Source: a virus
Taxonomy: Duplodnaviria; Heunggongvirae; Uroviricota; Caudoviricetes
Reading direction: 5' to 3' (one strand)
IMG/VR virus record: IMGVR_UViG_3300045988_124839
Length of the DNA: 44,051 nucleotides
Under the pieces are notes generated by a model. It did not search any database, was not told the DNA's origin, and worked only from the letters and a program-made list of their open reading frames with translations. Of this stretch, positions 1-19,919 are shown in pieces (within the stretch, counting starts at the first letter, position 1; each line of letters opens with the position of its first letter). A program made the translations under genes and the position numbers.

Positions 1-1
1 G

Positions 2-2284
2 CTGCAACAGGGTGGTCAGGTTAAGGACTCCTTCGGCGGGATGATCCCCATGTTCAGGGGGCTTGCCGGTGCGATCACCCTGCCGATGGTCGGGGCCACC
101 TCGCTGGCGGTGGCGACCGGTGCGCTGGCGTATGCCTGGTATCAGGGCAACTCAACCCTGTCCGATTTCAACAAAACGCTGGTCCTTTCCGGCAATCAGT
201 CGGGTCTGACGGCAGATCGTATGCTGGTCCTGTCCAGAGCCGGGCAGGCGGCAGGGCTGACGTTTAACCAGACCAGCGAGTCACTCAGCGCACTGGTTAA
301 GGCGGGAGTAAGCGGTGAGGCTCAGATTGCATCCATCAGCCAGAGTGTGGCGCGTTTCTCCTCTGCATCCGGCGTGGAGGTGGACAAGGTTGCTGAAGCC
401 TTCGGGAAGCTGACCACAGACCCGACGTCGGGGCTGACGGCGATGGCGCGCCAGTTCCATAACGTGACGGCGGAGCAGATTGCGTATGTCGCTCAGTTGC
501 AGCGTTCCGGCGATGAAGCCGGGGCATTGCAGGCGGCGAACGAGGCCGCAACGAAAGGGTTTGATGACCAGACCCGACGCCTGAAAGAGAACATGGGCAC
601 GCTGGAAACCTGGGCAGACAGGACAGCACGGGCATTCAAATCCATGTGGGATGCGGTGCTGGATATTGGTCGTCCTGATACCGCTCAGGAGATGCTGATT
701 AAGGCAGAGGCTGCGTTTAAGAAAGCAGACGACATCTGGAATCTGCGCAAGGATGATTATTTTGTTAACGATGAAGCGCGGGCGCGTTACTGGGATGATC
801 GTGAAAAGGCCCGTCTTGCGCTTGAAGCCGCCCGAAAGAAGGCTGAGCAGCAGACTCAACAGGACAAAAATGCGCAGCAGCAGAGCGATACCGAAGCGTC
901 ACGGCTGAAATATACCGAAGAGGCGCAGAAGGCTTACGAACGCCTGCAGACGCCGCTGGAGAAATATACCGCCCGTCAGGAAGAACTGAACAAGGCACTG
1001 AAAGACGGGAAAATCCTGCAGGCAGATTACAACACGCTGATGGCGGCGGCGAAAAAGGATTATGAAGCGACGCTGAAAAAGCCGAAGCAGTCCGGCGTGA
1101 AGGTGTCTGCGGGCGATCGTCAGGAAGACAGTGCTCATGCTGCCCTGCTGACGCTTCAGGCAGAACTCCGGACGCTGGAGAAGCATGCCGGAGCGAATGA
1201 GAAAATCAGCCAGCAGCGCCGGGATTTGTGGAAGGCGGAGAATCAGTTCGCGGTACTGGAGGAGGCGGCGCAACGTCGCCAGCTGTCTGCACAGGAGAAA
1301 TCCCTGCTGGCGCATAAAGATGAGACGCTGGAGTACAAACGCCAGCTGGCTGCACTTGGCGATAAGGTCACGTATCAGGAGCACCTGAATGCGCTGGCGC
1401 AGCAGGCGGATAAATTCGCACAGCAGCAACGGGCAAAACGGGCCGCCATTGATGCGAAAAGCCGGGGGCTGACTGACCGGCAGGCAGCGCGGGAAGCCAC
1501 TGAACAGCGCCTGAAGGAACAGTATGGCGATAATCCGCTGGCGCTGAATAACGTCATGTCAGAGCAGAAAAAGACCTGGGCGGCTGAAGACCAGCTTCGC
1601 GGGAGCTGGATGGCAGGCCTAAAGTCCGGCTGGAGTGAGTGGGAAGAGAGCGCCACGGACAGTATGTCTCAGGTTAAAAGTGCTGCCACGCAGACCTTTG
1701 ATGGTATTGCACAGAATATGGCGGCGATGCTGACCGGCAGTGAACAGAACTGGCGCAGCTTCACCCGTTCCGTGCTGTCCATGATGACAGAAATTCTGCT
1801 TAAGCAGGCAATGGTGGGGATTGTCGGGAGTATCGGCAGCGCCATTGGCGGTGCTGCCAGTGGTGGAGCATCAGCGTCAGGCGGTACAGCCATTCAGGCC
1901 GCTGCGGCGAAATTCCATTTTGCGACCGGGGGATTTACGGGAACCGGCGGCAAATATGAGCCAGCGGGGATTGTTCACCGTGGTGAATTTGTCTTCACAA
2001 AGGAGGCAACCAGCCGGATTGGCGTGGGGAATCTCTATCGGCTGATGCGCGGCTATGCCACCGGTGGTTATGTCGGTACACCGGGCAGTCTGGCTGACAG
2101 CCGGTCGCAGGCGTCCGGGACGTTTGAGCAGAATAACCATGTGGTGATTAACAACGACGGCACGAACGGGCAGATAGGGCCACAGGCACTGAAGGCTGTT
2201 TATGACGTAGCCCGTAAGGCGGCAATGGATGTTGTGACCGGGCAGATGCGCGATGGTGGTCTGTTCTCCGGAGGTGGACGATGA
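2..2284 (+). CDS. H: tail tape measure protein (lambda gpH-like), 5' end outside window
   Basis: Open frame continues to window edge with no upstream stop; Gly/Ala-rich C-terminus typical of gpH; directly precedes M-L-K-I-J in lambda order. Confidence 0.9.
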   Translation: MQQGGQVKDSFGGMIPMFRGLAGAITLPMVGATSLAVATGALAYAWYQGNSTLSDFNKTLVLSGNQSGLTADRMLVLSRAGQAAGLTFNQTSESLSALVKAGVSGEAQIASISQSVARFSSASGVEVDKVAEAFGKLTTDPTSGLTAMARQFHNVTAEQIAYVAQLQRSGDEAGALQAANEAATKGFDDQTRRLKENMGTLETWADRTARAFKSMWDAVLDIGRPDTAQEMLIKAEAAFKKADDIWNLRKDDYFVNDEARARYWDDREKARLALEAARKKAEQQTQQDKNAQQQSDTEASRLKYTEEAQKAYERLQTPLEKYTARQEELNKALKDGKILQADYNTLMAAAKKDYEATLKKPKQSGVKVSAGDRQEDSAHAALLTLQAELRTLEKHAGANEKISQQRRDLWKAENQFAVLEEAAQRRQLSAQEKSLLAHKDETLEYKRQLAALGDKVTYQEHLNALAQQADKFAQQQRAKRAAIDAKSRGLTDRQAAREATEQRLKEQYGDNPLALNNVMSEQKKTWAAEDQLRGSWMAGLKSGWSEWEESATDSMSQVKSAATQTFDGIAQNMAAMLTGSEQNWRSFTRSVLSMMTEILLKQAMVGIVGSIGSAIGGAASGGASASGGTAIQAAAAKFHFATGGFTGTGGKYEPAGIVHRGEFVFTKEATSRIGVGNLYRLMRGYATGGYVGTPGSLADSRSQASGTFEQNNHVVINNDGTNGQIGPQALKAVYDVARKAAMDVVTGQMRDGGLFSGGGR

Positions 2285-2610
2285 AAACCTTCCGCTGGAA
2301 AGTGAAACCCGGTATGGATGTGGCTTCGGCCCCTTCCGTAAGAAAGGTGCGCTTTGGTGATGGCTATTCCCAGCGTGCGCCTGCCGGGCTGAACGCTGAT
2401 CTGAAAACGTACAGCGTGACGCTTTCTGTTCCCCGTTGGGAGGCCACAGCGCTGGAGTCGTTTCTGGCTGAGCACGGGGGCTGGAAAGCCTTTCTGTGGA
2501 CGCCGCCTTATGAGTGGCGGCAGATAAAGGTGACCTGCGCAAAATGGTCGTCGCGGGTCAGTATGCTGCGTGTTGAGTTCAGCGCAGAGTTTGAACAGGT
2601 GGTGAACTGA
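2281..2610 (+). CDS. M: minor tail protein M
   Basis: 109 aa, N-terminus MKTFRWKVKPGMDVAS matches lambda gpM as recalled; ATGA overlap with H stop. Confidence 0.93.
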   Translation: MKTFRWKVKPGMDVASAPSVRKVRFGDGYSQRAPAGLNADLKTYSVTLSVPRWEATALESFLAEHGGWKAFLWTPPYEWRQIKVTCAKWSSRVSMLRVEFSAEFEQVVN

Positions 2611-3308
2611 TGCAGGATATCCAACAGGAAACACTGAATGAATGCACCCGTGCGGAGCAGTCGGCCAGCGTGGTGCTCTGGGAAATCGATCTGACAGAGG
2701 TCGGTGGAGAGCGTTATTTTTTCTGTAATGAGCAGAACGAAAAAGGTGAGCCGGTCACCTGGCAGGGGAGGCAGTATCAGGCGTATCCCATTCAGGGGAG
2801 CGGTTTTGAACTGAATGGCAAAGGCACCAGTACGCGGCCCACGCTGACGGTTTCTAACCTGTACGGTATGGTCACCGGGATGGCGGAAGATCTGCAGAGT
2901 CTGGTCGGCGGAACGGTGGTCCGGCGTAAGGTTTACGCCCGTTTTCTGGATGCGGTGAACTTCGTCAACGGAAACAGAGACGCCGATCCGGAGCAGGAGG
3001 TGATCAGCCGCTGGCGCATCGAGCAGTGCAGCGAACTGAGCGCGGTCAGTGCCTCTTTTGTACTGTCCACACCGACGGAAACGGATGGCTCTGTTTTTCC
3101 GGGGCGTATCATGCTGGCCAACACCTGCACCTGGACCTATCGCGGCGATGAGTGCGGTTATAGCGGTCCGGCGGTCGCGGATGAATATGACCAGCCGACG
3201 TCCGATATCACGAAGGATAAATGCAGCAAATGCCTGAGCGGCTGTAAGTTTCGCAATAACGTCGGCAACTTTGGCGGCTTCCTTTCCATTAACAAACTTT
3301 CGCAGTAA
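2610..3308 (+). CDS. L: minor tail protein L
   Basis: 232 aa, lambda gpL-like; start overlaps M stop (TGATG); conserved position. Confidence 0.93.
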   Translation: MQDIQQETLNECTRAEQSASVVLWEIDLTEVGGERYFFCNEQNEKGEPVTWQGRQYQAYPIQGSGFELNGKGTSTRPTLTVSNLYGMVTGMAEDLQSLVGGTVVRRKVYARFLDAVNFVNGNRDADPEQEVISRWRIEQCSELSAVSASFVLSTPTETDGSVFPGRIMLANTCTWTYRGDECGYSGPAVADEYDQPTSDITKDKCSKCLSGCKFRNNVGNFGGFLSINKLSQ

Positions 3309-3313
3309 ATCCC

Positions 3314-4057
3314 ATGACAGAGACAGAATCAGCGATTCTGGCGCATGCCCGGCGATGTGCGCCAGCGGAGTCGTGCGGCTTCGTGGTGAGAGCGCCGGAG
3401 GGGGAAAGATATTTCCCCTGCGTGAATATCTCCGGTGAGCCGGAGGATTATTTCCGGATGGCTCCGGAGGACTGGCTGCAGGCAGAGATGCAGGGTGAGA
3501 TTGTGGCACTGGTCCACAGTCATCCCGGTGGTCTGCCCTGGCTGAGTGAGGCTGACCGGCGGCTGCAGGTGCAGAGTGATTTGCCGTGGTGGCTGGTCTG
3601 CCGGGGGGCGATTCACAAGTTCCGCTGTGTGCCGCATCTCACCGGGCGGCGCTTTGAGTACGGGGTGACAGACTGTTACACACTGTTCCGGGATGCTTAC
3701 CATCTGGCGGGGATTGAGATGCCGGATTTTCATCGCGGGGATGACTGGTGGCGTCACGGTCAGAATCTCTATCTTGACAATATGGAGGCGACTGGTTTTT
3801 ACCGTGTCGCACTGACAGAGGCGCAGCCTGGCGACGTGCTGCTGTGCTGCTTTGGTTCATCGGTGCCGAATCATGCCGCCATTTACTGTGGTGATGGCGA
3901 GCTGCTGCACCATATTCCTGAACAACTGAGTAAACGAGAGAGGTATACCGACAAATGGCAGCGACGCACACACTCCCTCTGGCGTCACCGGGCATGGCGC
4001 GCATCTGCCTTTACGGGGATTTACAACGATTTGGCCGCCGCATCGACCTTCGTGTGA
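3314..4057 (+). CDS. K: tail tip assembly protein K (JAB/MPN-like HSHPGG motif)
   Basis: Lambda gpK-like sequence with HSHPGG metal-binding motif; start uncertain, an internal Met at 3458 would give a 199-aa product; 3' end overlaps I. Confidence 0.82.
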   Translation: MTETESAILAHARRCAPAESCGFVVRAPEGERYFPCVNISGEPEDYFRMAPEDWLQAEMQGEIVALVHSHPGGLPWLSEADRRLQVQSDLPWWLVCRGAIHKFRCVPHLTGRRFEYGVTDCYTLFRDAYHLAGIEMPDFHRGDDWWRHGQNLYLDNMEATGFYRVALTEAQPGDVLLCCFGSSVPNHAAIYCGDGELLHHIPEQLSKRERYTDKWQRRTHSLWRHRAWRASAFTGIYNDLAAASTFV

Positions 4058-4626
4058 AAACGGGGGCTGAAGCCATCCGCGCACTGGCCACACAGCTCCC
4101 GGCGTTTCGTCAGAAACTGAGCGACGGCTGGTATCAGGTACGGATTGCCGGGCGGGATGTCAGCACGTCCGGATTAACGGCGCAGTTACATGAGACTCTG
4201 CCTGATGGCGCTGTGATTCATATTGTTCCCAGAGTCGCCGGGGCCAAGTCAGGTGGTGTATTCCAGATTGTCCTGGGAGCTGCCGCCATTGCCGGATCAT
4301 TCTTTACTGCCGGAGCCACCCTTGCAGCATGGGGGGCAGCCATTGGGGCCGGTGGTATGACCGGCATCCTGTTTTCTCTCGGTGCCAGTATGGTGCTCGG
4401 TGGTGTGGCGCAGATGCTGGCACCGAAAGCCAGAACTCCCCGTACACAGACAACGGATAACGGCAAACAGAACACCTATTTCTCCTCACTGGATAACATG
4501 GTTGCCCAGGGCAATGTTTTGCCTGTTCTGTACGGTGAAATGCGTGTGGGGTCGCGGGTAGTTTCTCAGGAGATCAGCACGGCAGACGAAGGGGACGGTG
4601 GTCAGGTTGTGGTGATTGGTCGCTGA
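3955..4626 (+). CDS. I: tail assembly protein I
   Basis: 223 aa, begins MAATHTLPLASPGMARICLYGDLQRFGRRIDL as lambda gpI; Gly/Ala-rich hydrophobic C-terminus. Confidence 0.9.
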   Translation: MAATHTLPLASPGMARICLYGDLQRFGRRIDLRVKTGAEAIRALATQLPAFRQKLSDGWYQVRIAGRDVSTSGLTAQLHETLPDGAVIHIVPRVAGAKSGGVFQIVLGAAAIAGSFFTAGATLAAWGAAIGAGGMTGILFSLGASMVLGGVAQMLAPKARTPRTQTTDNGKQNTYFSSLDNMVAQGNVLPVLYGEMRVGSRVVSQEISTADEGDGGQVVVIGR

Positions 4627-4686
4627 TGCAAAATGTTTTATGTGAAACCGCCTCCGGGCGGTTTTGTCGTTTATGGAGCATGACGA

Positions 4687-7600
4687 ATGGGTAAAGGCAG
4701 CAGTAAGGGGCATACCCCGCGCGAAGCGAAGGATAACCTGAAATCCACGCAGTTACTGAGTGTGATCGATGCCATCAGCGAAGGGCCGATTGAAGGTCCG
4801 GTGGATGGATTAAAAAGCGTGCTGCTGAACAGTACGCCGGTGCTGGACAGTGAGGGGAATACCAATATATCCGGTGTCACGGTGGTGTTCCGGGCAGGTG
4901 AGCAGGAGCAGACACCGCCGGAGGGATTTGAATCCTCCGGTTCCGAGACGGTGCTGGGTACGGAAGTGAAATATGACACGCCGATCACCCGGACCATCAC
5001 GTCGGCAAACATCGACCGTCTGCGCTTTACCTTCGGTGTGCAGGCACTGGTGGAAACCACCTCAAAGGGGGACAGGAATCCATCGGAAGTCCGCCTGCTG
5101 GTTCAGATACAGCGTAACGGTGGCTGGGTGACAGAAAAAGACATCACCATTAAGGGCAAAACCACCTCGCAGTATCTGGCCTCGGTGGTGGTGGATAACC
5201 TGCCGCCGCGCCCGTTTAATATCCGGATGCGCAGGATGACGCCGGACAGCACCACAGACCAGCTGCAGAACAAAACGCTCTGGTCGTCATACACCGAAAT
5301 CATCGATGTGAAACAGGGCTACCCGAACACGGCACTGGTCGGCGTACAGGTGGATTCGGAGCAGTTCGGCAGCCAGCAGGTGAGCCGTAATTATCATCTT
5401 CGCGGGCGCATTCTGCAGGTGCCGTCGAACTATAACCCGCAGACGCGGCAATACAGCGGTATCTGGGACGGGACGTTTAAACCGGCATACAGCAACAACA
5501 TGGCCTGGTGTCTGTGGGATATGCTGACCCATCCGCGCTACGGCATGGGGAAACGTCTTGGTGCGGCGGATGTGGATAAATGGGCGCTGTATGTCATCGG
5601 CCAGAATTGCGACCAGTCGGTGCCGGACGGCTTTGGCGGCACGGAGCCGCGCATCACCTGTAACGCTTACCTGACCACACAGCGCAAGGCGTGGGATGTG
5701 CTCAGTGATTTCTGCTCGGCGATGCGCTGTATGCCGGTATGGAACGGGCAGACGCTGACGTTCGTGCAGGACCGGCCGTCGGATAAGGTGTGGACCTATA
5801 ACCGCAGTAATGTGGTGATGCCGGATGATGGCGCGCCGTTCCGCTACAGTTTCAGCGCCCTGAAGGACCGCCATAATGCCGTTGAGGTGAACTGGATTGA
5901 CCCGAACAACGGCTGGGAGACGGCGACAGAGCTTGTTGAAGATACGCAGGCCATTCTCCGTTACGGTCGTAACGTCACGAAGATGGACGCCTTTGGCTGT
6001 ACCAGCCGGGGGCAGGCACACCGCGCCGGGCTGTGGCTGATTAAAACAGAACTGCTGGAAACGCAGACCGTGGATTTCAGCGTCGGCGCAGAAGGGCTTC
6101 GCCATGTGCCGGGCGATGTCATTGAAATCTGTGATGATGACTATGCCGGTATCAGCACCGGTGGTCGCGTGCTGGCGGTGAACAGCCAGACCCGGACGCT
6201 GACGCTCGACCGTGAAATCACGCTGCCATCCTCCGGTACCACGCTGATAAGCCTGGTTGACGGAAGTGGCAATCCGGTCAGCGTGGAGGTTCAGTCCGTC
6301 ACCGACGGCGTGAAGGTAAAAGTGAGCCGTGTTCCTGACGGTGTTGCTGAATACAGCGTATGGGGGCTGAAGCTGCCGACGCTGCGCCAGCGACTGTTCC
6401 GCTGCGTGAGTATCCGTGAGAACGACGACGGCACGTATGCCATCACCGCCGTGCAGCATGTGCCGGAAAAAGAGGCCATCGTGGATAACGGGGCGCACTT
6501 TGACGGCGAACAGAGTGGCACGGTGAACGGTGTCACGCCGCCAGCGGTGCAGCACCTGACCGCAGAAGTCACTGCAGACAGCGGGGAATATCAGGTGCTG
6601 GCGCGATGGGACACACCGAAGGTGGTGAAGGGCGTGAGCTTCCTGCTCCGTCTGACCGTAACAGCGGACGACGGCAGTGAGCGGCTGGTCAGCACGGCCC
6701 GGACGACGGAAACCACATACCGCTTCACGCAACTGGCGCTGGGGAACTACAGGCTGACAGTCCGGGCGGTAAATGCGTGGGGGCAGCAGGGAGATCCGGC
6801 GTCGGTATCGTTCCGGATTGCCGCACCGGCAGCACCGTCGCGGATTGAGCTGACGCCGGGCTATTTTCAGATAACCGCAACGCCGCATCTTGCCGTTTAT
6901 GATCCGACGGTACAGTTTGAGTTCTGGTTCTCGGAAAAGCGGATTACGGATATCAGGCAGGTTGAAACCAGCGCACGTTATCTTGGTACGGCGCTGTACT
7001 GGATAGCCGCCAGTATCAATATCAAGCCGGGCCATGATTATTATTTTTACATCCGCAGTGTGAACACCGTTGGCAAATCGGCATTCGTGGAGGCTGTCGG
7101 TCGGGCGAGCGATGATGCAGAAGGTTACCTGGATTTTTTCAAAGGCCAGATAACCGAATCCCATCTCGGCAAGGAGCTGCTGGAAAAAGTCGACCTGACG
7201 GAGGATAACGCCAGCAGACTGGATGAGTTTTCGAAAGAGTGGAAAGATGCCAACGATAAATGGAATGCCATGTGGGGCGTCAAAATTGAGCAGACCAAAG
7301 ACGGCAAACATTATGTCGCGGGGCTTGGCCTCAGCATGGAGGATACGGAGGAAGGCAAACTGAGTCAGTTCCTGGTTGCCGCTAACCGTATCGCGTTTAT
7401 TGACCCGGCAAACGGGAATGAAACGCCGATGTTTGTGGCGCAGGGCAACCAGATATTCATGAATGAAGTGTTCCTGAAATATCTGACGGCTCCCACCATT
7501 ACCAGCGGCGGTAATCCTCCGGCATTTTCCCTGACACCGGACGGGCGGCTGACGGCAAAAAATGCCGATATCAGCGGTAACGTGAATGCGAACTCCGGGA

Positions 7601-8082
7601 CGCTCAACAACGTCACGATTAACGAGAACTGCCGGGTTCTGGGAAAACTGTCCGCGAACCAGATTGAAGGCGATCTCGTTAAAACAGTGGGCAAAGCTTT
7701 CCCCCGGGACTCCCGTGCACCGGAACGGTGGCCATCAGGGACCATTACCGTCAGGGTTTATGACGATCAGCCGTTTGACCGGCAAATTGTTATTCCAGCG
7801 GTGGCTTTCAGCGGTGCCAGACATGAACGGGAGAATAGCGATACTTATTCGTCATGCCGCCTGATAGTGAAGAAAAACGGGGCTGAAATTTATAACCGAA
7901 CGGCTCTGGATAATACTCTGATTTACACGGGTGTTATTGATATGCCTGCAGGCAGTGGCGTAATGACACTGGAGTTTTCGGTATCAGCATGGTGGGTAAA
8001 TGGCTGGTATCCCACAGCAAGTATCAGCGATTTGCTGGTTGTGGTGATGAAGAAAGCCACCGCAGGCATCAGTATCAGCTGA
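4687..8082 (+). CDS. J: host specificity / central tail fiber protein J
   Basis: 1131 aa, lambda gpJ-like over most of its length; C-terminal ~150 aa diverged from lambda J. Confidence 0.95.
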
Positions 8083-8149: not shown

Positions 8150-8749
8150 ATGCGTAAATTATGTGCTGTTATTCTGTCCGCAGTAGTCTGGCTGGTTGCC
8201 GTTGGTACGCCAGCGAGCGCAGCAGAGCATCAGTCCACACTAAGCGCCGGGTATCTTCAGGCCCATACTGATATGCCAGGCAGTGATGACCTGAAGGGCA
8301 TTAACGTGAAATACCGTTATGAATTTACGGACACGCTGGGGCTGGTGACGTCATTCAGTTATGCCAATGCCAAAGATGAGCAAAAAACGCATTACAGCGA
8401 TACCCGCTGGCATGAAGATTCAGTGCGTAACCGCTGGTTCAGCATGATGGCGGGGCCATCTGTACGCGTGAATGAATGGTTCAGTGCTTATGCGATGGCA
8501 GGTGTGGCTTACAGCCGTGTTTCGACGTTCTCCGGGGATTATCTCCGCGTAACTGACAACAAGGGGAAAACGCACGATGTGCTGACCGGAAGTGATGACG
8601 ATCGCCACAGCAACACGTCTCTGGCGTGGGGAGCTGGCGTGCAGTTTAACCCGACCGAATCCGTGGCCATTGATATTGCTTATGAAGGCTCCGGCAGTGG
8701 CGACTGGCGCACTGACGGTTTCATCGTGGGTGTCGGTTATAAGTTCTGA
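8150..8749 (+). CDS. lom: Lom/Ail family outer membrane protein
   Basis: 199 aa with signal peptide (MRKLCAVILSAVVWLVAVGTPASA), beta-barrel-like alternating pattern, C-terminal ...GYKF; lambda lom position after J. Confidence 0.9.
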   Translation: MRKLCAVILSAVVWLVAVGTPASAAEHQSTLSAGYLQAHTDMPGSDDLKGINVKYRYEFTDTLGLVTSFSYANAKDEQKTHYSDTRWHEDSVRNRWFSMMAGPSVRVNEWFSAYAMAGVAYSRVSTFSGDYLRVTDNKGKTHDVLTGSDDDRHSNTSLAWGAGVQFNPTESVAIDIAYEGSGSGDWRTDGFIVGVGYKF

Positions 8750-8776
8750 TTAGCCAGGTAACACAGTGTTATGACA

Positions 8777-8802
8777 GCCCGCCGGTTCAGGCGGGCTTTT
8801 TT
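8777..8802 (+). terminator. rho-independent terminator after lom
   Basis: GCCCGCC-GGTTCAG-GGCGGGC hairpin followed by TTTTTT. Confidence 0.7.
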
Positions 8803-8813
8803 GTGGAGTGGAT

Positions 8814-11189
8814 ATGGCAGCAGTAAAAATCTCAGGTGTGCTGAAAGATGGTGCGGGAAAACCAATACAGAACTGCACTATTCAACTGAAGGCAAAGCGT
8901 AACAGCACCACGGTACTGGTGAACACGGTTGCCTCTGAAAATCCTGATGAAGCCGGGCGTTACAGTATGGACGTTGAGTATGGTCAGTACAGCGTCATCC
9001 TGTGGATTGAGGGTTCTCAGCCATCACATGTTGGGACCATTACCGTCTATGAAGGTTCCAGTCCGGGGACGCTGAATGATTTTCTCGGTGCCATGACGGA
9101 AGATGATGTCATGCCGGAGGCATTGCGCCGTTTTCAGGAAATGGTGGAAGAAGCGGCACGCAACGCCGAAGCCGCTTCTCAGAGCGCAGCGGCGGCAAAG
9201 AAATCCGAAACTGCAGCGGCATCATCGAAGAACGCGGCGAAAACCTCAGAAACGAATGCAGCTAACAGCGCACAGGCGGCAGCGACCTCACAGACTGCAT
9301 CGGCAAACTCCGCGACAGCAGCTAAAAAATCAGAAACCAACGCGAAAAATAGCGAGACAGCCGCAAAGACGAGCGAAACCAATGCAAAGTCCAGCCAGAC
9401 GGCAGCGAAGACCAGCGAAACGAATGCTAAAGCCAGTGAAACTGCGGCAAAAAACAGCCAGGTTGCAGCAGCCCAAAGCGAGAGCGCGGCAGCCGGTTCT
9501 GCGACTTCAGCAACTGGATCAGCAACTGCTGCGGCTAACAGCCAGAAAGCTGCGAAGACGAGTGAAACTAACGCAAAGTCCAGCCAGACGGCAGCGAAGA
9601 CCAGCGAAACGAATGCCAAAGCCAGCGAAACTGCGGCGAAAAACAGTCAGGATGCAGCAGCCCAAAGCGAGAGTGCTGCAGCTGGTTCTGCAAGCGCGGC
9701 GGCTGCTTCTGCCACTGCATCAGCCAACAGTCAAAAAGCAGCAAAAACCAGTGAAACCAATGCAAAGACAAGCGAGACTGCAGCGGCGAACTCGGCGAAA
9801 GCATCGGCAGCAAGCCAGACAGCAGCTAAAGCAAGTGAAGACGCAGCCAGAGAGTATGCAAGTCAGGCAGCAGAGCCGTATAAATATGTCTTACAGCCGC
9901 TGCCTGATGTGTGGATACCATTTAACGATTCGCTGGATATGATTACGGGCTTTTCGCCATCATATAAAAAAATTGTTATTGGTGACGATGAAATAACGAT
10001 GCCTGGCGACAAGATTGTTAAGTTTAAACGTGCATCGAAAGCAACCTATATTAACAAATCTGGTGTGCTGACAGAGGCTGCCATTGACGAGCCACGATTT
10101 GAACGTGATGGTCTGCTTATTGAGGGGCAAAGAACAAACTACATGCTCAATTCGGAAAGCCCTGCCAGTTGGGGGCGATCGTCAAATATGGATGTGCCCG
10201 AAACAGGGACGGATAATTTTGGTTTTACCTATGGAAAGTTTGTCTGCAACGATTCTCTGATTGGGCAAACCTCAGCCATTAATATGGCATCAATTGCTGC
10301 AACAAAGTCAGTTGATGTCTCAGGCGATAATAAATATGTGACAACCTCATGTCGTTTTAAAACAGAACTGCAGGTAAGGTTGCGTATCCGGTTTGATAAA
10401 TATGACGGTAGCGCAACAACTTTTCTTGGTGATGCGTATATTGATACACAAACGCTTGAAATTAATATGACAGGCGGTGCTGCCTCAAGGATTACAGCGA
10501 GAGTCAGAAAGGACGAAGCTACCGGATGGATTTTTGCAGAGGCAACAATTCAGGCAATTGATGGGGAGTTAAAAATAGGTTCTCAGATACAGTATTCTCC
10601 TAAGCAGGGCGGGGCAACCGTATCTGGTGACTATATTTATCTGGCCACCCCACAAGTAGAAAATGGGCCTTGTGTATCATCTTTTATTATATCAGGAACG
10701 ACGGCGGCGACCCGCGCAAGCGATATAGTTACAGTTCCCATTAAGAATAATCTTTATAATCTTCCTTTTACGGTTCTTTGTGAGGTACATAAGAACTGGT
10801 ATAAAACGCCAAATGCAGCGCCGCGTGTTTTTGATACCGGCGGTCATCAAACCGGAGCGGCTATTATTCTTGGCTTCGGTTCTTCAGCAGATTACGACGG
10901 ATTTCCTTATTGCGATATTGGAGGAGCTAACAGACGGGTAAACGAAAACGCATCGCTTGAAAAAATGGTTATGGGGATGCGTGTAAAGTCAGATCAGTCT
11001 ACGTGCTCAGTAAGTAACGGGCGTATATCCAGCGAAACAAAAACCACATGGTCCTGTATTCAGAACACCGCAATTATCCGTATTGGAGGCCAGACTACAG
11101 CCGGGTTACGTCATTTATTTGGTCATGTCAGGAATTTCAGAATATGGCACAAGGCATTGACTGATGCTCAGGTGGGGGAGTCAATCTAA
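8814..11189 (+). CDS. stf: side tail fiber protein (Stf-like N-terminus, Ala/Ser/Thr-rich repeats, divergent AT-rich C-terminal domain)
   Basis: N-terminus MAAVKISGVLKDG... matches lambda Stf as recalled; GGAG RBS before the ATG at 8814 (ORF track starts at GTG 8808); repetitive KTSETNAK tract; C-terminal half lower in GC. Confidence 0.8.
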   Translation: MAAVKISGVLKDGAGKPIQNCTIQLKAKRNSTTVLVNTVASENPDEAGRYSMDVEYGQYSVILWIEGSQPSHVGTITVYEGSSPGTLNDFLGAMTEDDVMPEALRRFQEMVEEAARNAEAASQSAAAAKKSETAAASSKNAAKTSETNAANSAQAAATSQTASANSATAAKKSETNAKNSETAAKTSETNAKSSQTAAKTSETNAKASETAAKNSQVAAAQSESAAAGSATSATGSATAAANSQKAAKTSETNAKSSQTAAKTSETNAKASETAAKNSQDAAAQSESAAAGSASAAAASATASANSQKAAKTSETNAKTSETAAANSAKASAASQTAAKASEDAAREYASQAAEPYKYVLQPLPDVWIPFNDSLDMITGFSPSYKKIVIGDDEITMPGDKIVKFKRASKATYINKSGVLTEAAIDEPRFERDGLLIEGQRTNYMLNSESPASWGRSSNMDVPETGTDNFGFTYGKFVCNDSLIGQTSAINMASIAATKSVDVSGDNKYVTTSCRFKTELQVRLRIRFDKYDGSATTFLGDAYIDTQTLEINMTGGAASRITARVRKDEATGWIFAEATIQAIDGELKIGSQIQYSPKQGGATVSGDYIYLATPQVENGPCVSSFIISGTTAATRASDIVTVPIKNNLYNLPFTVLCEVHKNWYKTPNAAPRVFDTGGHQTGAAIILGFGSSADYDGFPYCDIGGANRRVNENASLEKMVMGMRVKSDQSTCSVSNGRISSETKTTWSCIQNTAIIRIGGQTTAGLRHLFGHVRNFRIWHKALTDAQVGESI
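9366..9767 (+). repeat. tandem direct repeat inside stf (189-bp unit, about 2.1 copies)
   Basis: Two near-identical in-frame 189-bp units encoding KTSETNAKSSQTAAKTSETNAKASETAAKNSQ(V/D)AAAQSESAAAGSA..., then a partial third unit. Confidence 0.8.
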
Positions 11190-11470
11190 TGAAAGATTTA
11201 ACACTCAAATTTGCCGACAGGGCCGACTTTTCGGCCTTTATGGAGAGTATTGGCTATTATGATGACGAGTCGATGCAGGATGATATTCTTATTGACGTGA
11301 TAGGTAACGTGTACAAAGAAACCGGAGAACTGAATGAAGATGGCGAACCGGTATGTGTTAAGGAAGACGGATATTTTGTAAACGTGCGCATCATTAATGA
11401 TGTGAAAACACCGTCAATATTCGATGAATACGTGGTTGCTGTTGAGCATCAACTTCGTGGCTGGATGTGA
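11189..11470 (+). CDS. hypothetical protein (acidic, 93 aa) between the two fiber genes
   Basis: ATG overlaps stf stop (TAATG); no recognisable motif; position suggests fiber accessory role. Confidence 0.4.
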   Translation: MKDLTLKFADRADFSAFMESIGYYDDESMQDDILIDVIGNVYKETGELNEDGEPVCVKEDGYFVNVRIINDVKTPSIFDEYVVAVEHQLRGWM

Positions 11471-11479
11471 GGAAGAATA

Positions 11480-12520
11480 ATGGCTACATCGACAGTAATT
11501 CCTGATGACATCAAAACGCTAAAATCCGATGTTAGCAAATTAAAAAACGATCAAGGGAGCTACGCAACAAAATCATATGTAGACAATAAAACAACATGGA
11601 ATAGTTATTGCAATGTAATCTATGATCAAAAGACATTGCCGACCACTGGAACTATATTTAGCGGTAAGATTCACTTGTCAAATAAGACAGGAGAAACCGA
11701 AAACGCTTATAGTGAGATGTACACCAGAAAAAATATTGACGGTACAAAAGATACAATGACAAGGATTGTCACACACAATGGAACAAAAGGTATCTTTTGG
11801 GATTTTAGCGATCTTTACGGCGGAACATTAATTTTTCCAGGCAGTGATGGTTACCTTAAGATGGGGAACTGTCTCATGTCGTATGGTGTGCGGGGAAGTA
11901 ACGCGCTTATTAAGTTTGACTGCACAGACACATTACAAATCAAATATGCCAATCATGGGTCAACCATGACATTAAACACACAGGGGACCGCTCATTCTGG
12001 CGCTACTACTAGTTTGTGGGGTAACTCTACCCGTCCGGTTGTATATGAAGTTGGTGCTGATGGTGGCGCGTATATGTTCTATGCGCAGAAAAATACCGAT
12101 AACACCTATATGTTAAGCGTTAATGGTGCATGTCATGCCACCGCATTTAACCAGCATTCCGACCGGGATCTGAAAGACAACATTCAGGTGATCGATAATG
12201 CAACCGACCGCATCCGTAAAATGAACGGCTATACATACACGCTTAAAGAAAACGGTATGCCCTATGCAGGTGTCATTGCACAGGAAGCTCTGGAAGCAAT
12301 CCCAGAAGTTGTAGGTTCCGCAATGAAATATCAGGACGGTGCAAGCGGATCGGAAGGTGAAGAAGGTGAACGTTATTACACAGTAGATTATTCTGGTGTT
12401 ACTGGCTTGCTTGTTCAGGTAGCCAGAGAGTCAGACGACAGAATAACAGTACTGGAAGAAGAAAACGCAGAATTAAGGCAAAGATTATCTGCAATTGAGG
12501 CGACGCTTGCGTCTAAATAA
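11480..12520 (+). CDS. tail fiber / tail spike protein with C-terminal intramolecular chaperone (peptidase S74-like) domain
   Basis: C-terminal motif SDRDLKDNIQVIDNATDRIRKMNGYTY...YAGVIAQEALEAIPEVV typical of the autoproteolytic chaperone-of-endosialidase domain, followed by a coiled-coil tail; RBS GAGGAAGAATA before ATG. Confidence 0.72.
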   Translation: MATSTVIPDDIKTLKSDVSKLKNDQGSYATKSYVDNKTTWNSYCNVIYDQKTLPTTGTIFSGKIHLSNKTGETENAYSEMYTRKNIDGTKDTMTRIVTHNGTKGIFWDFSDLYGGTLIFPGSDGYLKMGNCLMSYGVRGSNALIKFDCTDTLQIKYANHGSTMTLNTQGTAHSGATTSLWGNSTRPVVYEVGADGGAYMFYAQKNTDNTYMLSVNGACHATAFNQHSDRDLKDNIQVIDNATDRIRKMNGYTYTLKENGMPYAGVIAQEALEAIPEVVGSAMKYQDGASGSEGEEGERYYTVDYSGVTGLLVQVARESDDRITVLEEENAELRQRLSAIEATLASK

Positions 12521-12526
12521 TATTAA

Positions 12527-12548
12527 GGGGCCGAGCGCCCCGTTTTAT
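12527..12548 (+). terminator. putative rho-independent terminator after fiber gene
   Basis: GC-rich hairpin GGGGCCGAGCGCCCC followed by GTTTTATT. Confidence 0.5.
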
Positions 12549-12562
12549 TGGGTAGGATGAAA

Positions 12563-12856
12563 ATGGATATAACACCTTTCCTTCATGCTCTTTGTGCTGT
12601 GGCTGCGCAGCTACTGATTGGTCTTTTTACCGGGAACTGGGCTTACGGAGCGATAGCCGGTTGTACGTTCTTCATTGCGCGTGAACACACCCAGGCAGAA
12701 TATCGCTGGATTGAAATGTTCGGGCATGGCAAGCGGATTAACATGCCGTGGTGGGGCGGTTTTGATCCGCGCGTGTGGGATGTGGCAAGCCTGATGGATT
12801 TTGCTGTGCCGGTGGTGGCGTGTCTGCTGGTCTGGCTGTTGGTTTATCGTGGGTGA
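12563..12856 (+). CDS. small hydrophobic membrane protein
   Basis: About 97 aa with two hydrophobic segments; AGGA RBS 6 nt before the ATG at 12563 (ORF track begins at TTG 12548). Confidence 0.4.
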   Translation: MDITPFLHALCAVAAQLLIGLFTGNWAYGAIAGCTFFIAREHTQAEYRWIEMFGHGKRINMPWWGGFDPRVWDVASLMDFAVPVVACLLVWLLVYRG

Positions 12857-12990
12857 AAAAAGGTGAGCTGTATATGCAACGGAGGAAGAAACCCCGTTGC
12901 TGGAAGCCTGGAAAAAGTATCGGGTGTTGTTGAATCGTGTTGATACATCACTATCTCCAGATATCGAGTGGCCAAGTCAACCATAAATCA

Positions 12991-13015
12991 ATATCCCCTG
13001 CAATGCAGGGGATAT
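12991..13015. terminator. bidirectional hairpin terminator at the 3' end of the sop operon
   Basis: Perfect inverted repeat ATATCCCCTGC-AAT-GCAGGGGATAT with T-rich flanks on both strands, 4 nt from the sopB stop. Confidence 0.65.
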
Positions 13016-13018
13016 TTC

Positions 13019-13984
13019 TTAATTATCAGTAGATTGTTCCTCTAGTAACAACTCAATTCTGCTTAGTATTTCTTTAGATATTTTTCGGCTATCAATTTTT
13101 ATAGTTACAAAATTACCTTTATATCTAGCCGTGATCCCTTCCCCATATTTTTTCTCGTCTTTTGTTTTTTCCTCGTCGCCAACCAGAACAGAGTCAGATA
13201 ATATTTGTATAATCCGTGAAGCTTCTAAATCCTCGCCGTTTTTTTTAATTGCCAGAAGATGATGAGCAGCATTGCTCATGGCAGCCATGTTTTTTTTGTA
13301 GACCTTAAACAAAGAATCTCCAGCACGAGCTGACAGTTCTCCTGGATGATTGAAGATAGCTAATATATCTTTTGGTAGACCAGCTGTATTAATACAGCGA
13401 GTGATAATATTTCTGTCTATATTTTCAGCCTCGGCTAATGCTTTAACGTTACCATCAAAGTCATTTAGCTTGCGTAAGTATCTCTTTCCTCTTTCGTATG
13501 CACTAATAGGCCTATAATCGTTACCAATTTGGGATAACCAATGCATCTGTTCATCGTCGAGATCACCTATTAAGACGCGATAGTCACATCCTGTTAATAT
13601 CGCTGCTTTTCTTCTACGTGAGCCGTCAGCGACTTCAACGATTCCAGACACTTTTCTGGCGAAAGCTGGATTTTGTTGTCCAGACGTTAGAAAAGATGGG
13701 ATTAAATCGGCTAGAGAGGATTCATTTAATAAATCTTGATCGCGTTCATTACCTAGCCATACCATTGTTGCCATTTCAACTTTATCTGCGGGAATTGTCT
13801 CTAACTTAAAGTTAACATTACGTCCGCATACTGGCAAAGTTATGCTGTTACCGGTTAATGAACTCAGTTGACGTTTTAAATCACCAACCATAGGTGATAC
13901 GGGCTGATGTTCAGGGGCATGATGATTATTACTCATAATGCGATTAATATCTGGAGCATTTTTTAGAAGAGAGCGCTGTTTCAT
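13019..13984 (-). CDS. sopB: partition protein SopB (ParB-type centromere-binding protein)
   Basis: 321 aa; immediately downstream of and overlapping (ATGA) the ParA-type ATPase gene; size and arrangement as F/N15 sopAB. Confidence 0.85.
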   Translation of the reverse strand: MKQRSLLKNAPDINRIMSNNHHAPEHQPVSPMVGDLKRQLSSLTGNSITLPVCGRNVNFKLETIPADKVEMATMVWLGNERDQDLLNESSLADLIPSFLTSGQQNPAFARKVSGIVEVADGSRRRKAAILTGCDYRVLIGDLDDEQMHWLSQIGNDYRPISAYERGKRYLRKLNDFDGNVKALAEAENIDRNIITRCINTAGLPKDILAIFNHPGELSARAGDSLFKVYKKNMAAMSNAAHHLLAIKKNGEDLEASRIIQILSDSVLVGDEEKTKDEKKYGEGITARYKGNFVTIKIDSRKISKEILSRIELLLEEQSTDN

Positions 13985-15150
13985 TATTCGTTCTCCCAGC
14001 GAGGTTTTATTAGATCATCAAAAATTTCTCGGCAAACAGGGTCCCATATAGAAACAGCATTTCTCCATGCATTCAATGTTGAACGTTGGTTTGCTGCTTG
14101 TTCAAATACTGTTCTCATTTTTATCTGGCCTTTACCTACTTCATCGGTAACGCGTACAACCTGACGTAATACCATTGATCCCCATGTATTTCTTATTTGT
14201 TCTTCCATCCATCGTGATTGATTCCCTGTAGTGAGACTATATTTAGTCAGAAGTAAGCGAACGGTTGGCTCAAATCCACCTAGGTCAACGCTTTCCAATA
14301 GATCGAGAAGCATTGTGAAAAACTGTAGAACAGAAGCGTAATCAAATAATTCTGCAGGTGTAGCAACAACAATAACGTCAGCGGCACAAACAACGTTAAT
14401 GGTTCCTGTACCGAGGTTCGGAGCACTATCTATAACGATAACATCGTAGTTATCCCAAACTGATTCAATAGCTGCGCGCAGCATAAGGTGTGGAGGATGA
14501 GGCAATTTACCCTGAGCATGATATTGCATGAGATCTGTTTCTATACGATGTAAAGCTAGGCAGCTAGGGATAATGTCTAGCCCAGGCCAACATGTTGGCT
14601 TTATAGCATATTCAGCGTTATCGCGTTCTCCTAAGTAAAATGGCAGTAAAGTATCCTCGGCATGGATATGTAAATCAGGAACATAACCGTGATACATAGA
14701 GGCCGTGCCTTGAGGATCGTTACCTTCAACCAAAAGAACACGATGACCTTGTAATGCTAACCATTGAGCTTGATGTACCGCAGACGATGTTTTATAAACG
14801 CCGCCTTTGTGTGACATAACGGCAAGCACAACAGGGTTTTTATCTTGTGGTCGTTGGTTTGGGTTGCCAAAAACTGCTCGCATACTGTTGATTTGATCTA
14901 TGGTATAACCAGCACGACGTTCAATTCTTCCTCTCATTTCAAAGTCAGGTGCAGGTAAACGCCCGCTCTTCTCAGCATCTCTAATTGCTTGAGGAGTTAC
15001 ACCAATTAAATCTGCTACTTCAGTTATACCCCATCGGCGGGTGATACGCCGAGCTTCAGGACTATCATCACCGAATTGAGCGATAGCAATTGCTTGGGTC
15101 ATTTCTTGACCTCTCGTAACACAATCTTGCAATAACTTTTTCAAAGACAT
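13984..15150 (-). CDS. sopA: partition ATPase SopA (ParA, type Ia with N-terminal HTH extension)
   Basis: 388 aa; deviant Walker A MSHKGGVYKTSS; long N-terminal extension typical of type Ia ParA. Confidence 0.9.
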   Translation of the reverse strand: MSLKKLLQDCVTRGQEMTQAIAIAQFGDDSPEARRITRRWGITEVADLIGVTPQAIRDAEKSGRLPAPDFEMRGRIERRAGYTIDQINSMRAVFGNPNQRPQDKNPVVLAVMSHKGGVYKTSSAVHQAQWLALQGHRVLLVEGNDPQGTASMYHGYVPDLHIHAEDTLLPFYLGERDNAEYAIKPTCWPGLDIIPSCLALHRIETDLMQYHAQGKLPHPPHLMLRAAIESVWDNYDVIVIDSAPNLGTGTINVVCAADVIVVATPAELFDYASVLQFFTMLLDLLESVDLGGFEPTVRLLLTKYSLTTGNQSRWMEEQIRNTWGSMVLRQVVRVTDEVGKGQIKMRTVFEQAANQRSTLNAWRNAVSIWDPVCREIFDDLIKPRWENE

Positions 15151-15798: not shown

Positions 15799-17706
15799 AT
15801 GAGCAAAGTAAAAATCGGTGAATTAATAAACTCACTTGTTAGCGATGTTGAGTCAATAGATAACTCTGACCGTCCTCAAGGGGAAAAAACAAAAAAAATA
15901 AAAGCTGTTGCATTAAAATTTAAAAATGCATTATTTAATGACAAGCGAAAGTTTAGGGGGAAAGGATTAGAAAAAAGAATTACAGCCAACACATTCAATG
16001 CCTATATGAGCAGGGCCAGAAAACGGTTTGATGATAAACTTCATCATAGCTTTGAAAAAAATATACATCGCCTATCTGAAAAGTATCCTTTATATAATGA
16101 GGAGCTATTATCATGGCTTTCTCTACCTGCTGCCGATATTCGCCAGAGAATGTCAGCTTTACAGGCAAAATTAAAATTAATTCTCCCTTTATCAGAAGAT
16201 TTATCTAATATCAGAATTGGTGATAACAAAAGTCATAATAAGTTATTAAAATTATCAAATAAATATAAAGAGTGGCAATTCGCCATTTCTGATTTAACTA
16301 GCGATAACTGGAAAGATAAGCGCGATTATTTATATAAATTACTACAGCAAGGATCTGCCTTACTTGAGGAGTTGAATCAGCTAAAAGTTAACCATGAGAT
16401 TCTCTATCATCTTCAACTAAGCCCTGCCGAACGCGCATCTATCCAGCAACGATGGGCAGACGTTCTGCACAATAAGAAACGTAACGTGGTGGTCATTGAT
16501 TACCCTAAATATATGCAAGCTATTTACGATATTATAAATAGCCCTGCTACATTAAATAATCTAAACACTCGTTCAGGTATGGCTCCTTTGGCATTTGCAC
16601 TTGCTGCATTGTCAGGAAGACGAATGATTGAGATTATGTATCAAGGTACATTTACTGTTTCTGGTAAGTATACCGTTGATTTTTTAGGCCAAGCAAAAAA
16701 AAGAACTTCTGATGATATAACCAGAAAAATATATACATTATGCGAAGCAAAAACATTTGTTTATTTAATAAATGTACTTCGCTCATGCCCAGCAGCATCT
16801 GATTTTGATGATGTCGTTAAAGGTTATGGAGATAACGACACACGCTCTGAAAACGGACGGATTAATGCCATATTAGCAAAGGCTTTTAACCCGTGGGTTA
16901 AATCATTTTTCAAAGATGACCGCCGTGTTTATAAAGATAGTCGTGCTATTTATGCCCGTATTGCGTATGAAATGTTTTTCCGCGTAGATCCTCGTTGGAA
17001 AAACGTAGATGAGGATGTTTTCTTTATGGAAATTTTAGGCCATGACGATGAAAACACTCAATTACACTATAAGCAATTCAAGCTGGCCAACTTCTCAAAG
17101 ACATGGAGGCCAAATACTGGAAACGAAAATACCAGGCTGGAAGCATTGCAGCAGCTTGATGACGAAATGCCAGGATTCGCCAGAGGAGATGCCGGAGTTC
17201 GTCTGCATAACACAGTTAAGCAGCTGGTAGAGCAGGACCCCTCTATAAAAATCACGAACAGCACTCTAAGAGCATTCAAATTTAGCCCTACAATGATTAG
17301 TCGATACCTGGAATTTGCTGCTGATGCTCTGGGGCAATTTGTTGGCGAAAATGGACAATGGCAGCTGAAAATAGATTCTCCAGAAATCGTTATGCCTGAC
17401 GAAGAAGAGCTGGAAGCAATACCTGAACAGACGGATGAATTATCAGAGGATGACGATCTGGATGACGACGAAATTGAGATAGAGGAAGAGGAAGAGGAAG
17501 AGGAAGAGGAAGAGAGCGTAGAAGAACAGCAACCGCCCGCGCCTTCTTCACCTGTATCTAAGCCGGTATTTAAGCCTGTGAGAAATATTGGTGATGGCTC
17601 ATACGTTGTTGAGTTTCATTATAATGGCCAGAATTATGCTTGGTCCGGCAGTGCAAACAGCCCTATATCAGCAATGCAGTTAGCATGGCTGACATATTTC
17701 GGATAA
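15799..17706 (+). CDS. telN: protelomerase TelN
   Basis: 635 aa; N-terminus MSKVKIGELIN...RPQG.KTK.IKA...KNALFNDKRKFRGKGL.KRITANTFNAYMSRARKRFDDKLHHSF and much of the body match N15 TelN as recalled; acidic Glu/Asp-rich C-terminal tract; RBS AGGAGAGGAAAG. Confidence 0.95.
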   Translation: MSKVKIGELINSLVSDVESIDNSDRPQGEKTKKIKAVALKFKNALFNDKRKFRGKGLEKRITANTFNAYMSRARKRFDDKLHHSFEKNIHRLSEKYPLYNEELLSWLSLPAADIRQRMSALQAKLKLILPLSEDLSNIRIGDNKSHNKLLKLSNKYKEWQFAISDLTSDNWKDKRDYLYKLLQQGSALLEELNQLKVNHEILYHLQLSPAERASIQQRWADVLHNKKRNVVVIDYPKYMQAIYDIINSPATLNNLNTRSGMAPLAFALAALSGRRMIEIMYQGTFTVSGKYTVDFLGQAKKRTSDDITRKIYTLCEAKTFVYLINVLRSCPAASDFDDVVKGYGDNDTRSENGRINAILAKAFNPWVKSFFKDDRRVYKDSRAIYARIAYEMFFRVDPRWKNVDEDVFFMEILGHDDENTQLHYKQFKLANFSKTWRPNTGNENTRLEALQQLDDEMPGFARGDAGVRLHNTVKQLVEQDPSIKITNSTLRAFKFSPTMISRYLEFAADALGQFVGENGQWQLKIDSPEIVMPDEEELEAIPEQTDELSEDDDLDDDEIEIEEEEEEEEEEESVEEQQPPAPSSPVSKPVFKPVRNIGDGSYVVEFHYNGQNYAWSGSANSPISAMQLAWLTYFG

Positions 17707-19727: not shown

Positions 19728-19919
19728 TTACTCCCCGTTCACCGAAAATTCACGATAGAAACGTTTCCACATACGATAAGTCTGCGCAAATTGTTCACCA
19801 CGAAACATCGCCTTCCTGGCCTTCATGTTTTCCTTGTGAGACTTTCGGTCTATGAACCAAAACCATAGATGGAACACACAAAGCAAGAGACACAAAGATA
19901 ATATCCAATCATTACCCAT
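19728..19919 (-). CDS. small hydrophobic protein (63 aa)
   Basis: Internal ATG at 19919 overlapping the repA stop; hydrophobic segment LSLCLLLCVFHLWFWFI. Confidence 0.35.
   Translation of the reverse strand: MGNDWILSLCLLLCVFHLWFWFIDRKSHKENMKARKAMFRGEQFAQTYRMWKRFYREFSVNGE

Follow-up and report, generated by a model that had tools for sequence, protein, structure and literature searches.

A probable portable receptor-binding cassette behind the lambda-type side tail fibre of an N15-like telomere prophage

The 44,051-nucleotide viral sequence IMGVR_UViG_3300045988_124839 (hereafter the window, meaning the whole stretch at its full length) is recognizable as an N15-like telomere phage, that is, a linear-plasmid prophage of Escherichia coli. 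We analyzed the region that begins inside its side tail fibre gene stf and runs through a small open reading frame (ORF), orf93, into the gene of a 346-aa fibre with an S74-type C-terminus. We consider it likely that this region is a portable three-gene receptor-binding cassette that was recombined onto a lambda-type side tail fibre, with the second fibre docking on the Stf module or on orf93. Domain homologies, mosaic breakpoints, the pattern of variability and gene linkage are shown by the sequence comparisons. The O-antigen or capsule types that a coliphage can overcome are set by its side or lateral fibres, and the cassette is a real and mosaic, but ordinary and widespread, kind of phage host-range locus. 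What the present analysis adds is a precise placing of the module boundaries, together with a strictly linked partner, the hitherto unstudied orf93 protein. The features of the region are listed below, where ESCO3 stands for the virulent Nonagvirus vB_EcoS_ESCO3, L085 for a P2-like myovirus prophage and GTA for gene transfer agent.

8814..11189, + strand: stf, side tail fibre gene, 791 aa (ORF list; full-length match to PHROG 1419, 'tail protein')
8820..9209, + strand: lambda-type Stf N-terminal virion-attachment domain (Pfam PF08400, residues 5-134, E 6.5e-64)
9210..9893, + strand: Ala/Ser/Thr-rich repetitive shaft (36% A, 19% S, 12% T)
9894..11186, + strand: portable Stf C-terminal module (starts at QPLPDVW; shared with ESCO3 and L085)
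10116..10718, + strand: GTA head-spike-fibre-like domain (NCBIfam NF048003, 'GTA_spike_fiber')
10134..11093, + strand: hypervariable segment 1, Stf residues 441-760 (conservation profile of 62 distinct Stf sequences)
11016..11174, + strand: C-terminal strands of a ConA/LamG-like domain (weak match to Pfam Laminin_G_3, PF13385)
11189..11470, + strand: orf93, small acidic protein, 93 aa (PHROG 1361, function not assigned)
11480..12520, + strand: short distal fibre precursor, 346 aa (PHROG 4563, 'tail fiber protein', E 3e-208)
11480..11569, + strand: N-terminal anchor and heptad coiled coil of the small fibre, residues 1-30, MATSTVIPDDIKTLKSDVSKLK (92-98% column conservation)
11570..11809, + strand: hypervariable segment 2, small-fibre residues 31-110 (conservation 0.63-0.82)
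11966..12157, + strand: T4 gp34-like fibre domain (WGNSTRPVVYEVG...FYAQ...NG) before the cleavage site (profile match to T4 gp34)
12158..12517, + strand: S74 intramolecular chaperone domain, residues 227-346 (Pfam PF13884, Peptidase_S74)

A sequence-only reading of this DNA had described an stf gene with a lambda-like N-terminus that becomes AT-rich and unrelated to lambda from about residue 330. The start of stf is most likely the ATG at 8814, in agreement with the annotation of gp22 of Escherichia phage 2G7b, rather than the GTG at 8808 given by the ORF finder, and residues are counted from this ATG. The lambda-like N-terminus was borne out by the PF08400 match and by BLASTP, which aligned residues 5-331 to lambda orf-401 with 57% identity (E 8e-75). 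Within this alignment the stretch 8820..9209 is highly similar, and the similarity of the shaft, which reaches residue 331, is of low complexity. The break proposed at about residue 330 marks the end of the lambda similarity, but the module junction itself lies at residue 361 (nt 9894), the first codon of the motif QPLPDVW. This is the point where nucleotide homology to ESCO3 starts, and the same junction is used behind the P2-type fibre N-terminus of L085; the start coordinate of 9900 given for the foreign region was essentially exact. Beyond the junction, nothing in Stf resembled lambda orf-314 (best E 14), which makes up the C-half of Ur-lambda Stf. The G+C content, which is 0.574 over positions 1-8000 and 0.547 over 9200-9890, drops at about nt 9890 and stays at 0.36-0.47 up to 12520 (0.440 over 9890-11189, 0.418 in orf93 and 0.420 in the 346-aa gene). 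Neither composition nor similarity to lambda is uniform across the region, and an S74 match is present. The shaft also contains a 189-nt tandem repeat at 9351-9785 (2.3 copies, 82% matches in Tandem Repeats Finder), which probably explains the length differences among Stf homologues (727 to 793 aa and beyond). This repeat region has a very strong AT skew and carries long spurious ORFs at 9103-9942 (+ strand) and 9179-9619 (- strand).

The mosaic structure of the region was most apparent when sliding nucleotide identity was calculated against related phages. PhiR46_1, the nearest N15-like relative, is 95-100% identical to the window up to nt 9900, falls to 38-55% over 9950-11100, recovers to about 90% over 11150-11550 (orf93 and the start of the fibre gene), falls again to 54-63% over 11600-11850 and is 74-98% identical beyond. 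In the comparison with the lambdoid phage 2G7b the second of these islands is the sole divergent stretch. ESCO3 is unrelated to the window before 9894, 97-100% identical from about 10050 to 11550 and 56-61% identical in the second island. Over segment 2, identity to these three phages ranges from 54 to 63%. The presence of two low-identity islands amid blocks of about 90-100% identity makes horizontal exchange directly visible, and these profiles indicate that the cassette holds two hypervariable segments, each exchanging separately. Segment 1, flanked by the conserved Stf residues 361-440 and 761-791, exists in at least 10 alleles with pairwise identities of 42-81% among 80 viral contigs. Hypervariable cores framed by conserved joints would be expected if receptor-contacting domains are swapped by homologous recombination, and they support the idea of a host-range cassette. 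The horizontal acquisition that had been proposed from sequence alone is thus seen in the sliding identity, whereas the host-range role that had been attached to it is one that variability and homology suggest.

The three genes travel together in several kinds of phage. They occur in the same order in the lambdoid phages 2G7b (gp22-gp24), Tritos, HannyBb and PhiR63_1, whose cassettes are 96-98% identical to the window at the nucleotide level over 8000/8798-11585, and in ESCO3 (genes 00078-00080, 93.7% over 9894-12448), in which the fibre N-terminus is unrelated to that of the window (35% identity). In all five cassettes the main difference from the window is segment 2 of the small fibre, and the deposited products are annotated only as tail fibre, hypothetical protein or 'endosialidase chaperone'. 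Besides lambda-type N-termini, the trio is found behind Nonagvirus and P2-type fibre N-termini, the latter (PF12571 and PF03406) in a myovirus prophage. An orf93 homologue was located directly 3' of the Stf C-module in 70 out of 70 loci, which had been chosen by the Stf C-module alone and had enough downstream sequence. Among 5426 complete E. coli genomes, 1807 match parts of the cassette, and in 366 the coverage is 80% or more. In some prophages of E. coli chromosomes (NZ_CM151361.1 and NZ_CP097198.1; hits H43 and H50) the cassette is broken by insertions of IS3-family transposases.

The foreign tip of Stf, which had been described merely as unrelated to lambda, can be defined by profile matches as a GTA head-spike-fibre-like plus LamG-like module. 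The NF048003 match has an E-value of 5.8e-13 (49.8 bits against a cut-off of 36). As a single sequence the module matches Rcc01080, the head spike fibre of the Rhodobacter capsulatus gene transfer agent RcGTA (PDB 6tb9, chain F3), with E 3.5e-7, and a profile built from ten alleles does so with E 7.8e-16 over about 240 residues. Rcc01080 is a flexible fibre that mediates attachment of RcGTA to capsular polysaccharide (PMC7296036), and capsule binding has been measured for the RcGTA head spike fibre (PMC10218006). Laminin_G_3 matches were obtained for nine of the ten alleles, all within the last ~150 residues of the module, the best with E 1.6e-7. Homology and hypervariability together suggest that the Stf module binds glycans.

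The sequence-only reading had also predicted an S74-type motif and a coiled coil at the C-terminus of the 346-aa protein, and both were found. The PF13884 match covers residues 227-278 (model positions 1-57 out of 58; 52.4 bits against a cut-off of 22; E 6.4e-14) and begins exactly at S227 of the SDRDLK motif; the heptad pattern spans residues 319-344, with 6 out of 7 a/d positions hydrophobic, and weak profile matches to coiled-coil structures were also obtained. The catalytic role of the Ser-Lys dyad of S74 domains is established from the K1F endosialidase. In the window this Ser-x4-Lys dyad (Ser227/Lys232) is intact, and S227, D228, R229, D230, L231 and K232 each show at least 90% conservation across 27 homologues with overall identities of 37-93%. 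The S74 domain further matches the C-terminal region of S16 gp37 (6f45, E 1.4e-7). Out of 192 homologues of the 346-aa protein nearly all carry PF13884. The domain preceding the cleavage site resembles a repeated unit of T4 gp34 (E 1.3e-7 in a profile match to structures 4uxe/5nxf; phmmer E 0.037). The N-terminus is likewise a heptad coiled coil, with a repeat number that differs among homologues and a weak profile match to trimeric Lpp (E 0.003). The part that would remain after cleavage (residues 1-226) has a mass of about 24.8 kDa.

Taken together, these features suggest the following arrangement. Stf would be fixed to the tail tip by its lambda-type N-terminal domain and extended by the Ala/Ser-rich shaft, and from residue 361 it carries a conserved neck, the GTA-fibre-like domain and a probable ConA/LamG-like domain. 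The most likely ligand of segment 1 (residues 441-760), the hypervariable core of this module, is a polysaccharide of the cell surface, either O-antigen or capsule. The orf93 product, translationally coupled to stf, is most likely an assembly factor or adaptor of the Stf module. The 346-aa protein would form trimers, assisted by the S74 intramolecular chaperone (IMC) at its C-terminus, and cleave itself at Ser227, with Lys232 as general base, to yield a fibre of ~25 kDa bearing the second hypervariable region. The conserved coiled coil at the N-terminus of this small fibre would then attach it to the Stf module or to orf93, and the outcome would be a branched or extended side fibre with two specificities.

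Several observations weigh against this arrangement. That the module binds glycans, that the small fibre cleaves itself and docks, and that orf93 acts as proposed are steps that we infer. The Laminin_G_3 match of the window's own allele (E 0.0062, 17.1 bits) falls below the Pfam cut-off of 27.6 bits. Structure prediction, one of the checks put forward with the sequence-only reading, succeeded for orf93 (pLDDT 87.5) but not for the Stf C-module, for which an AlphaFold2 model made with 20 close homologues reached a pLDDT of 41.7, so that its fold is assigned from profiles only. The best 120 homologues among the matches listed for this module are all at least 72% identical, which means that the alignment behind the model is not deep. 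More than 2,500 homologues of the C-module were found. A comparison of orf93 type with the Stf neck or C-tail, made independently of segment 1, showed no clear co-variation with the neck: in the P2-type loci orf93 is 48% identical to that of the window and the neck 99%. Finally, 68 loci have 700 nt or more of sequence downstream, and in 12 of them the module has a divergent orf93 (43-44% identity) behind it but the distal fibre is missing. These are lambdoid loci (L128-L132, L135 and L156-L161; for example L128, 3269-5916) in which the Stf C-module is 77-87% identical to that of the window and a membrane-protein gene comes right after orf93; the second fibre is thus optional.

The loci without a distal fibre would also fit a 346-aa S74 protein that acts as an independent short fibre or spike on the tail tip (J or baseplate), its adjacency to stf reflecting shared late expression and co-transfer. 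Separately anchored fibres are common in phages, and the interface between Stf and the small fibre is a conjectural one. We nevertheless regard this explanation as unlikely. No recognizable virion-attachment domain was found in the small fibre by Pfam and PHROG searches, and its N-terminal peptide, MAT.T.IP.DI..LK, is common to lambda-type and Nonagvirus siphoviruses and to the P2-type myovirus, which are phages with unrelated tail tips and baseplates; in each context the small-fibre gene is the next one after orf93, which itself directly follows the Stf C-module. Since a single N-terminal peptide is in use on lambda-type, 9g-type and P2-type virions with unrelated baseplates, the docking site would have to travel with the cassette. 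The distal fibre also has variants. In 28 out of 80 loci, which had been selected by orf93, an alternative distal fibre of 229-234 aa is encoded (for example in L039 at 6292-6996, and in L027 and L066); its N-terminus is 74% identical over the first 27 residues, a long coiled coil is present, and the C-terminus, though IMC-like, is of another type (SSIRYK...GLIAEEV). The P2-type distal fibre, in which the N-terminal motif recurs, ends in a Gp34_trimer domain, and a separate Caudo_TAP chaperone replaces S74. Across the distal fibres the anchor at the N-terminus is thus constant, and both tip and folding device can be exchanged. In L085 (6001-10052) the homologue of tail fibre H has the C-module from QPLPDVW onward and is followed by a 92-aa homologue of orf93 (48% identity) and a 303-aa distal fibre with the shared N-terminal motif.

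The small acidic ORF noted in the earlier reading was recovered as predicted (pI 4.11; 21 D+E against 8 K+R). It begins with an ATG that shares bases with the stop codon of stf (TAATG). Its family comprises 49 representative clusters among 1.84 billion proteins and is always stand-alone, at ~90-100 aa. The product gave no Pfam, NCBIfam or Caudo_TAP match, its PHROG match carries no functional label, and a fold search with the AlphaFold2 model, a small alpha/beta fold, returned no informative relatives. We found no relation to known chaperone families (Tfa/Caudo_TAP, gp38, gp57A) by sequence or fold. Separately, the possibility that orf93 is a Tfa-like chaperone by homology was ruled out, as Pfam, NCBIfam and PHROG give no functional match.

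This lack of a family, fold or literature assignment, together with a small size and acidity shared with many phage inhibitor proteins, could suit an unrelated moron carried along between the fibre genes, such as a factor for anti-defence or exclusion. Such an origin is improbable, because the start of orf93 overlaps the stf stop and the pairing in 70/70 loci includes virulent Nonagvirus. The pairing and the overlap even persist in distant phages: in two metagenomic contigs (L162, 1-2165, and L163, 1-6263) homologues of orf93 that are 36-38% identical overlap the stop codon of a large fibre gene whose C-terminal module is 30-34% identical to that of Stf (E 7e-52 and 1e-34). In these contigs a different fibre gene follows, and the upstream protein of L163 exceeds 1700 aa. 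Moreover, orf93 is 87-100% identical in E. coli phages while both hypervariable islands turn over. The loci without a distal fibre imply that the second fibre is dispensable and that orf93 is more than its connector, and a strict pairing, kept to ~30% identity and without the second fibre, suggests that orf93 is specifically partnered with those parts of the module that are conserved. Judged from these comparisons, its behaviour is unlike that of a hitch-hiking accessory gene and fits no known chaperone family; orf93 is probably a cognate assembly chaperone or adaptor of the Stf C-module. On a bolder reading, which we hold less likely than not, the orf93 family would be an undescribed class of obligate partners of lectin modules of the GTA head-spike-fibre type; it would fold the module or form the socket for the N-terminal coiled coil of the second fibre, giving a plug-and-play adhesin of dual specificity on siphovirus and myovirus tails.

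It is equally improbable that the Stf C-module is an enzyme (a ConA-superfamily glycan depolymerase or glucanase) on a tailspike-like fibre rather than a non-catalytic lectin: Laminin_G_3 does belong to the 'ConA-like lectin/glucanases' superfamily and enzymatic spikes are frequent in O-antigen-dependent coliphages (PMC11990801), but a motif search found no GH16-type E-x-D-x(1,2)-E in Stf, Pfam and NCBIfam searches gave no glycosidase family match, and the nearest characterized homologue, Rcc01080, is described as a capsule-binding fibre (PMC7296036, PMC10218006).

Compared with known systems, the preferred arrangement of an Stf module, orf93 and a docked S74 fibre combines familiar parts. The window shares with lambda Stf (orf-401/orf-314) and Tfa the J-lom-stf order, the PF08400 domain and the Ala/Ser-rich shaft. 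In contrast to the T4 gp37-like tip of lambda, the C-terminal half of Stf in the window is unrelated, and in place of the Tfa/Caudo_TAP gene, which was not found, there are the 93-aa ORF and the additional S74 fibre. T5-like phages have lateral fibres made of two proteins, with an extra lectin-like domain in the proximal fibres (PMC4728585, PMC11990801). The architecture of DT57C LtfA/LtfB and of BASEL phage IrisVonRoten, with its galectin-like proximal fibre and IMC distal fibre, is that proposed for the window, and in these fibres as in the window both parts are variable and horizontally exchanged (PMC4728585, PMC11990801). The likeness in sequence that was found is that of the S74 domain, and docking in the window is presumed; the window also differs in that the proximal protein has no IMC of its own and that the obligate 93-aa partner ORF lies between the two genes. 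The S74 domains of the K1F endosialidase, T5 pb1 and S16 gp37 begin with Ser-x4-Lys and end in a helical coiled coil, as in the window. Unlike the tips of K1F and T5 pb1, the S74 fibre of the window has a very short mature part (226 aa) that is neither an endosialidase nor a T5-type tip and consists of a T4 gp34-like domain and a variable domain. Rcc01080 is a single flexible subunit held on capsid pentons by an N-terminal Leu-Gly peptide, whereas in the window the Rcc01080-like domain is joined to the tip of a tail-fibre shaft, has the LamG-like domain as an extension and is paired with orf93. Variable lateral-fibre loci of one or two genes have been described in Dhillonvirus, Nonagvirus and Drexlerviridae (PMC8594841). 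Our literature search found general accounts of such loci only and no experimental study of this trio or of orf93.

The module boundaries (nt 9894, 10134/11093 and 11570/11809) show where alleles swap while the conserved joints are untouched. This map is useful for host-range engineering and prediction in the many E. coli prophages that bear the cassette; a third of the complete genomes have DNA matches to it. As orf93 stays strictly paired with the lectin-type tip down to ~30% identity, it is a candidate for an assembly or adaptor factor not studied so far. Apart from this pairing, the locus illustrates the well-known mosaicism of tail fibres and S74 intramolecular chaperones.

The surroundings of the cassette are those of an N15-like prophage with an exchanged tail end. 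The replication region is 97.6% identical to that of Escherichia phage PhiR46_1 and ~78% identical to that of N15. The gene order J, lom, stf found in the window is the lambda-type tail end and stands in place of the gene 21-25 set of N15, which implies that the entire tail-tip end is mosaic with respect to N15. The flanking features are the following.

4687-8082: J
8150-8749: Lom (Pfam Ail_Lom, E 6.8e-127)
8776..8797, + strand: terminator-like hairpin between lom and stf (8-bp stem with 7 GC pairs, T run)
12527..12541, + strand: terminator-like hairpin ending the stf-orf93-fibre unit (GGGGCCGAGCGCCCC and a T-rich tail)
12557-12856, + strand: 99-aa predicted membrane protein (PHROG 1443, G+C 0.53, without Pfam match)
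13019-15150, - strand: ParB/ParA
15799-17706: protelomerase
19912-23907: RepA, 1331 aa

The two hairpins at 8776..8797 and 12527..12541 are consensus matches only. A scan for internal promoters gave 9 matches against 7.8 ± 2.7 in shuffled sequence, and thus no excess. The gene of the 99-aa membrane protein sits between the hairpin at 12527-12541 and a bidirectional one at 12990-13016. Many lambdoid phages retain it where the late operon ends, also when they have no distal fibre (L128, 5623-5916), and it may be a moron or lysogenic-conversion gene.

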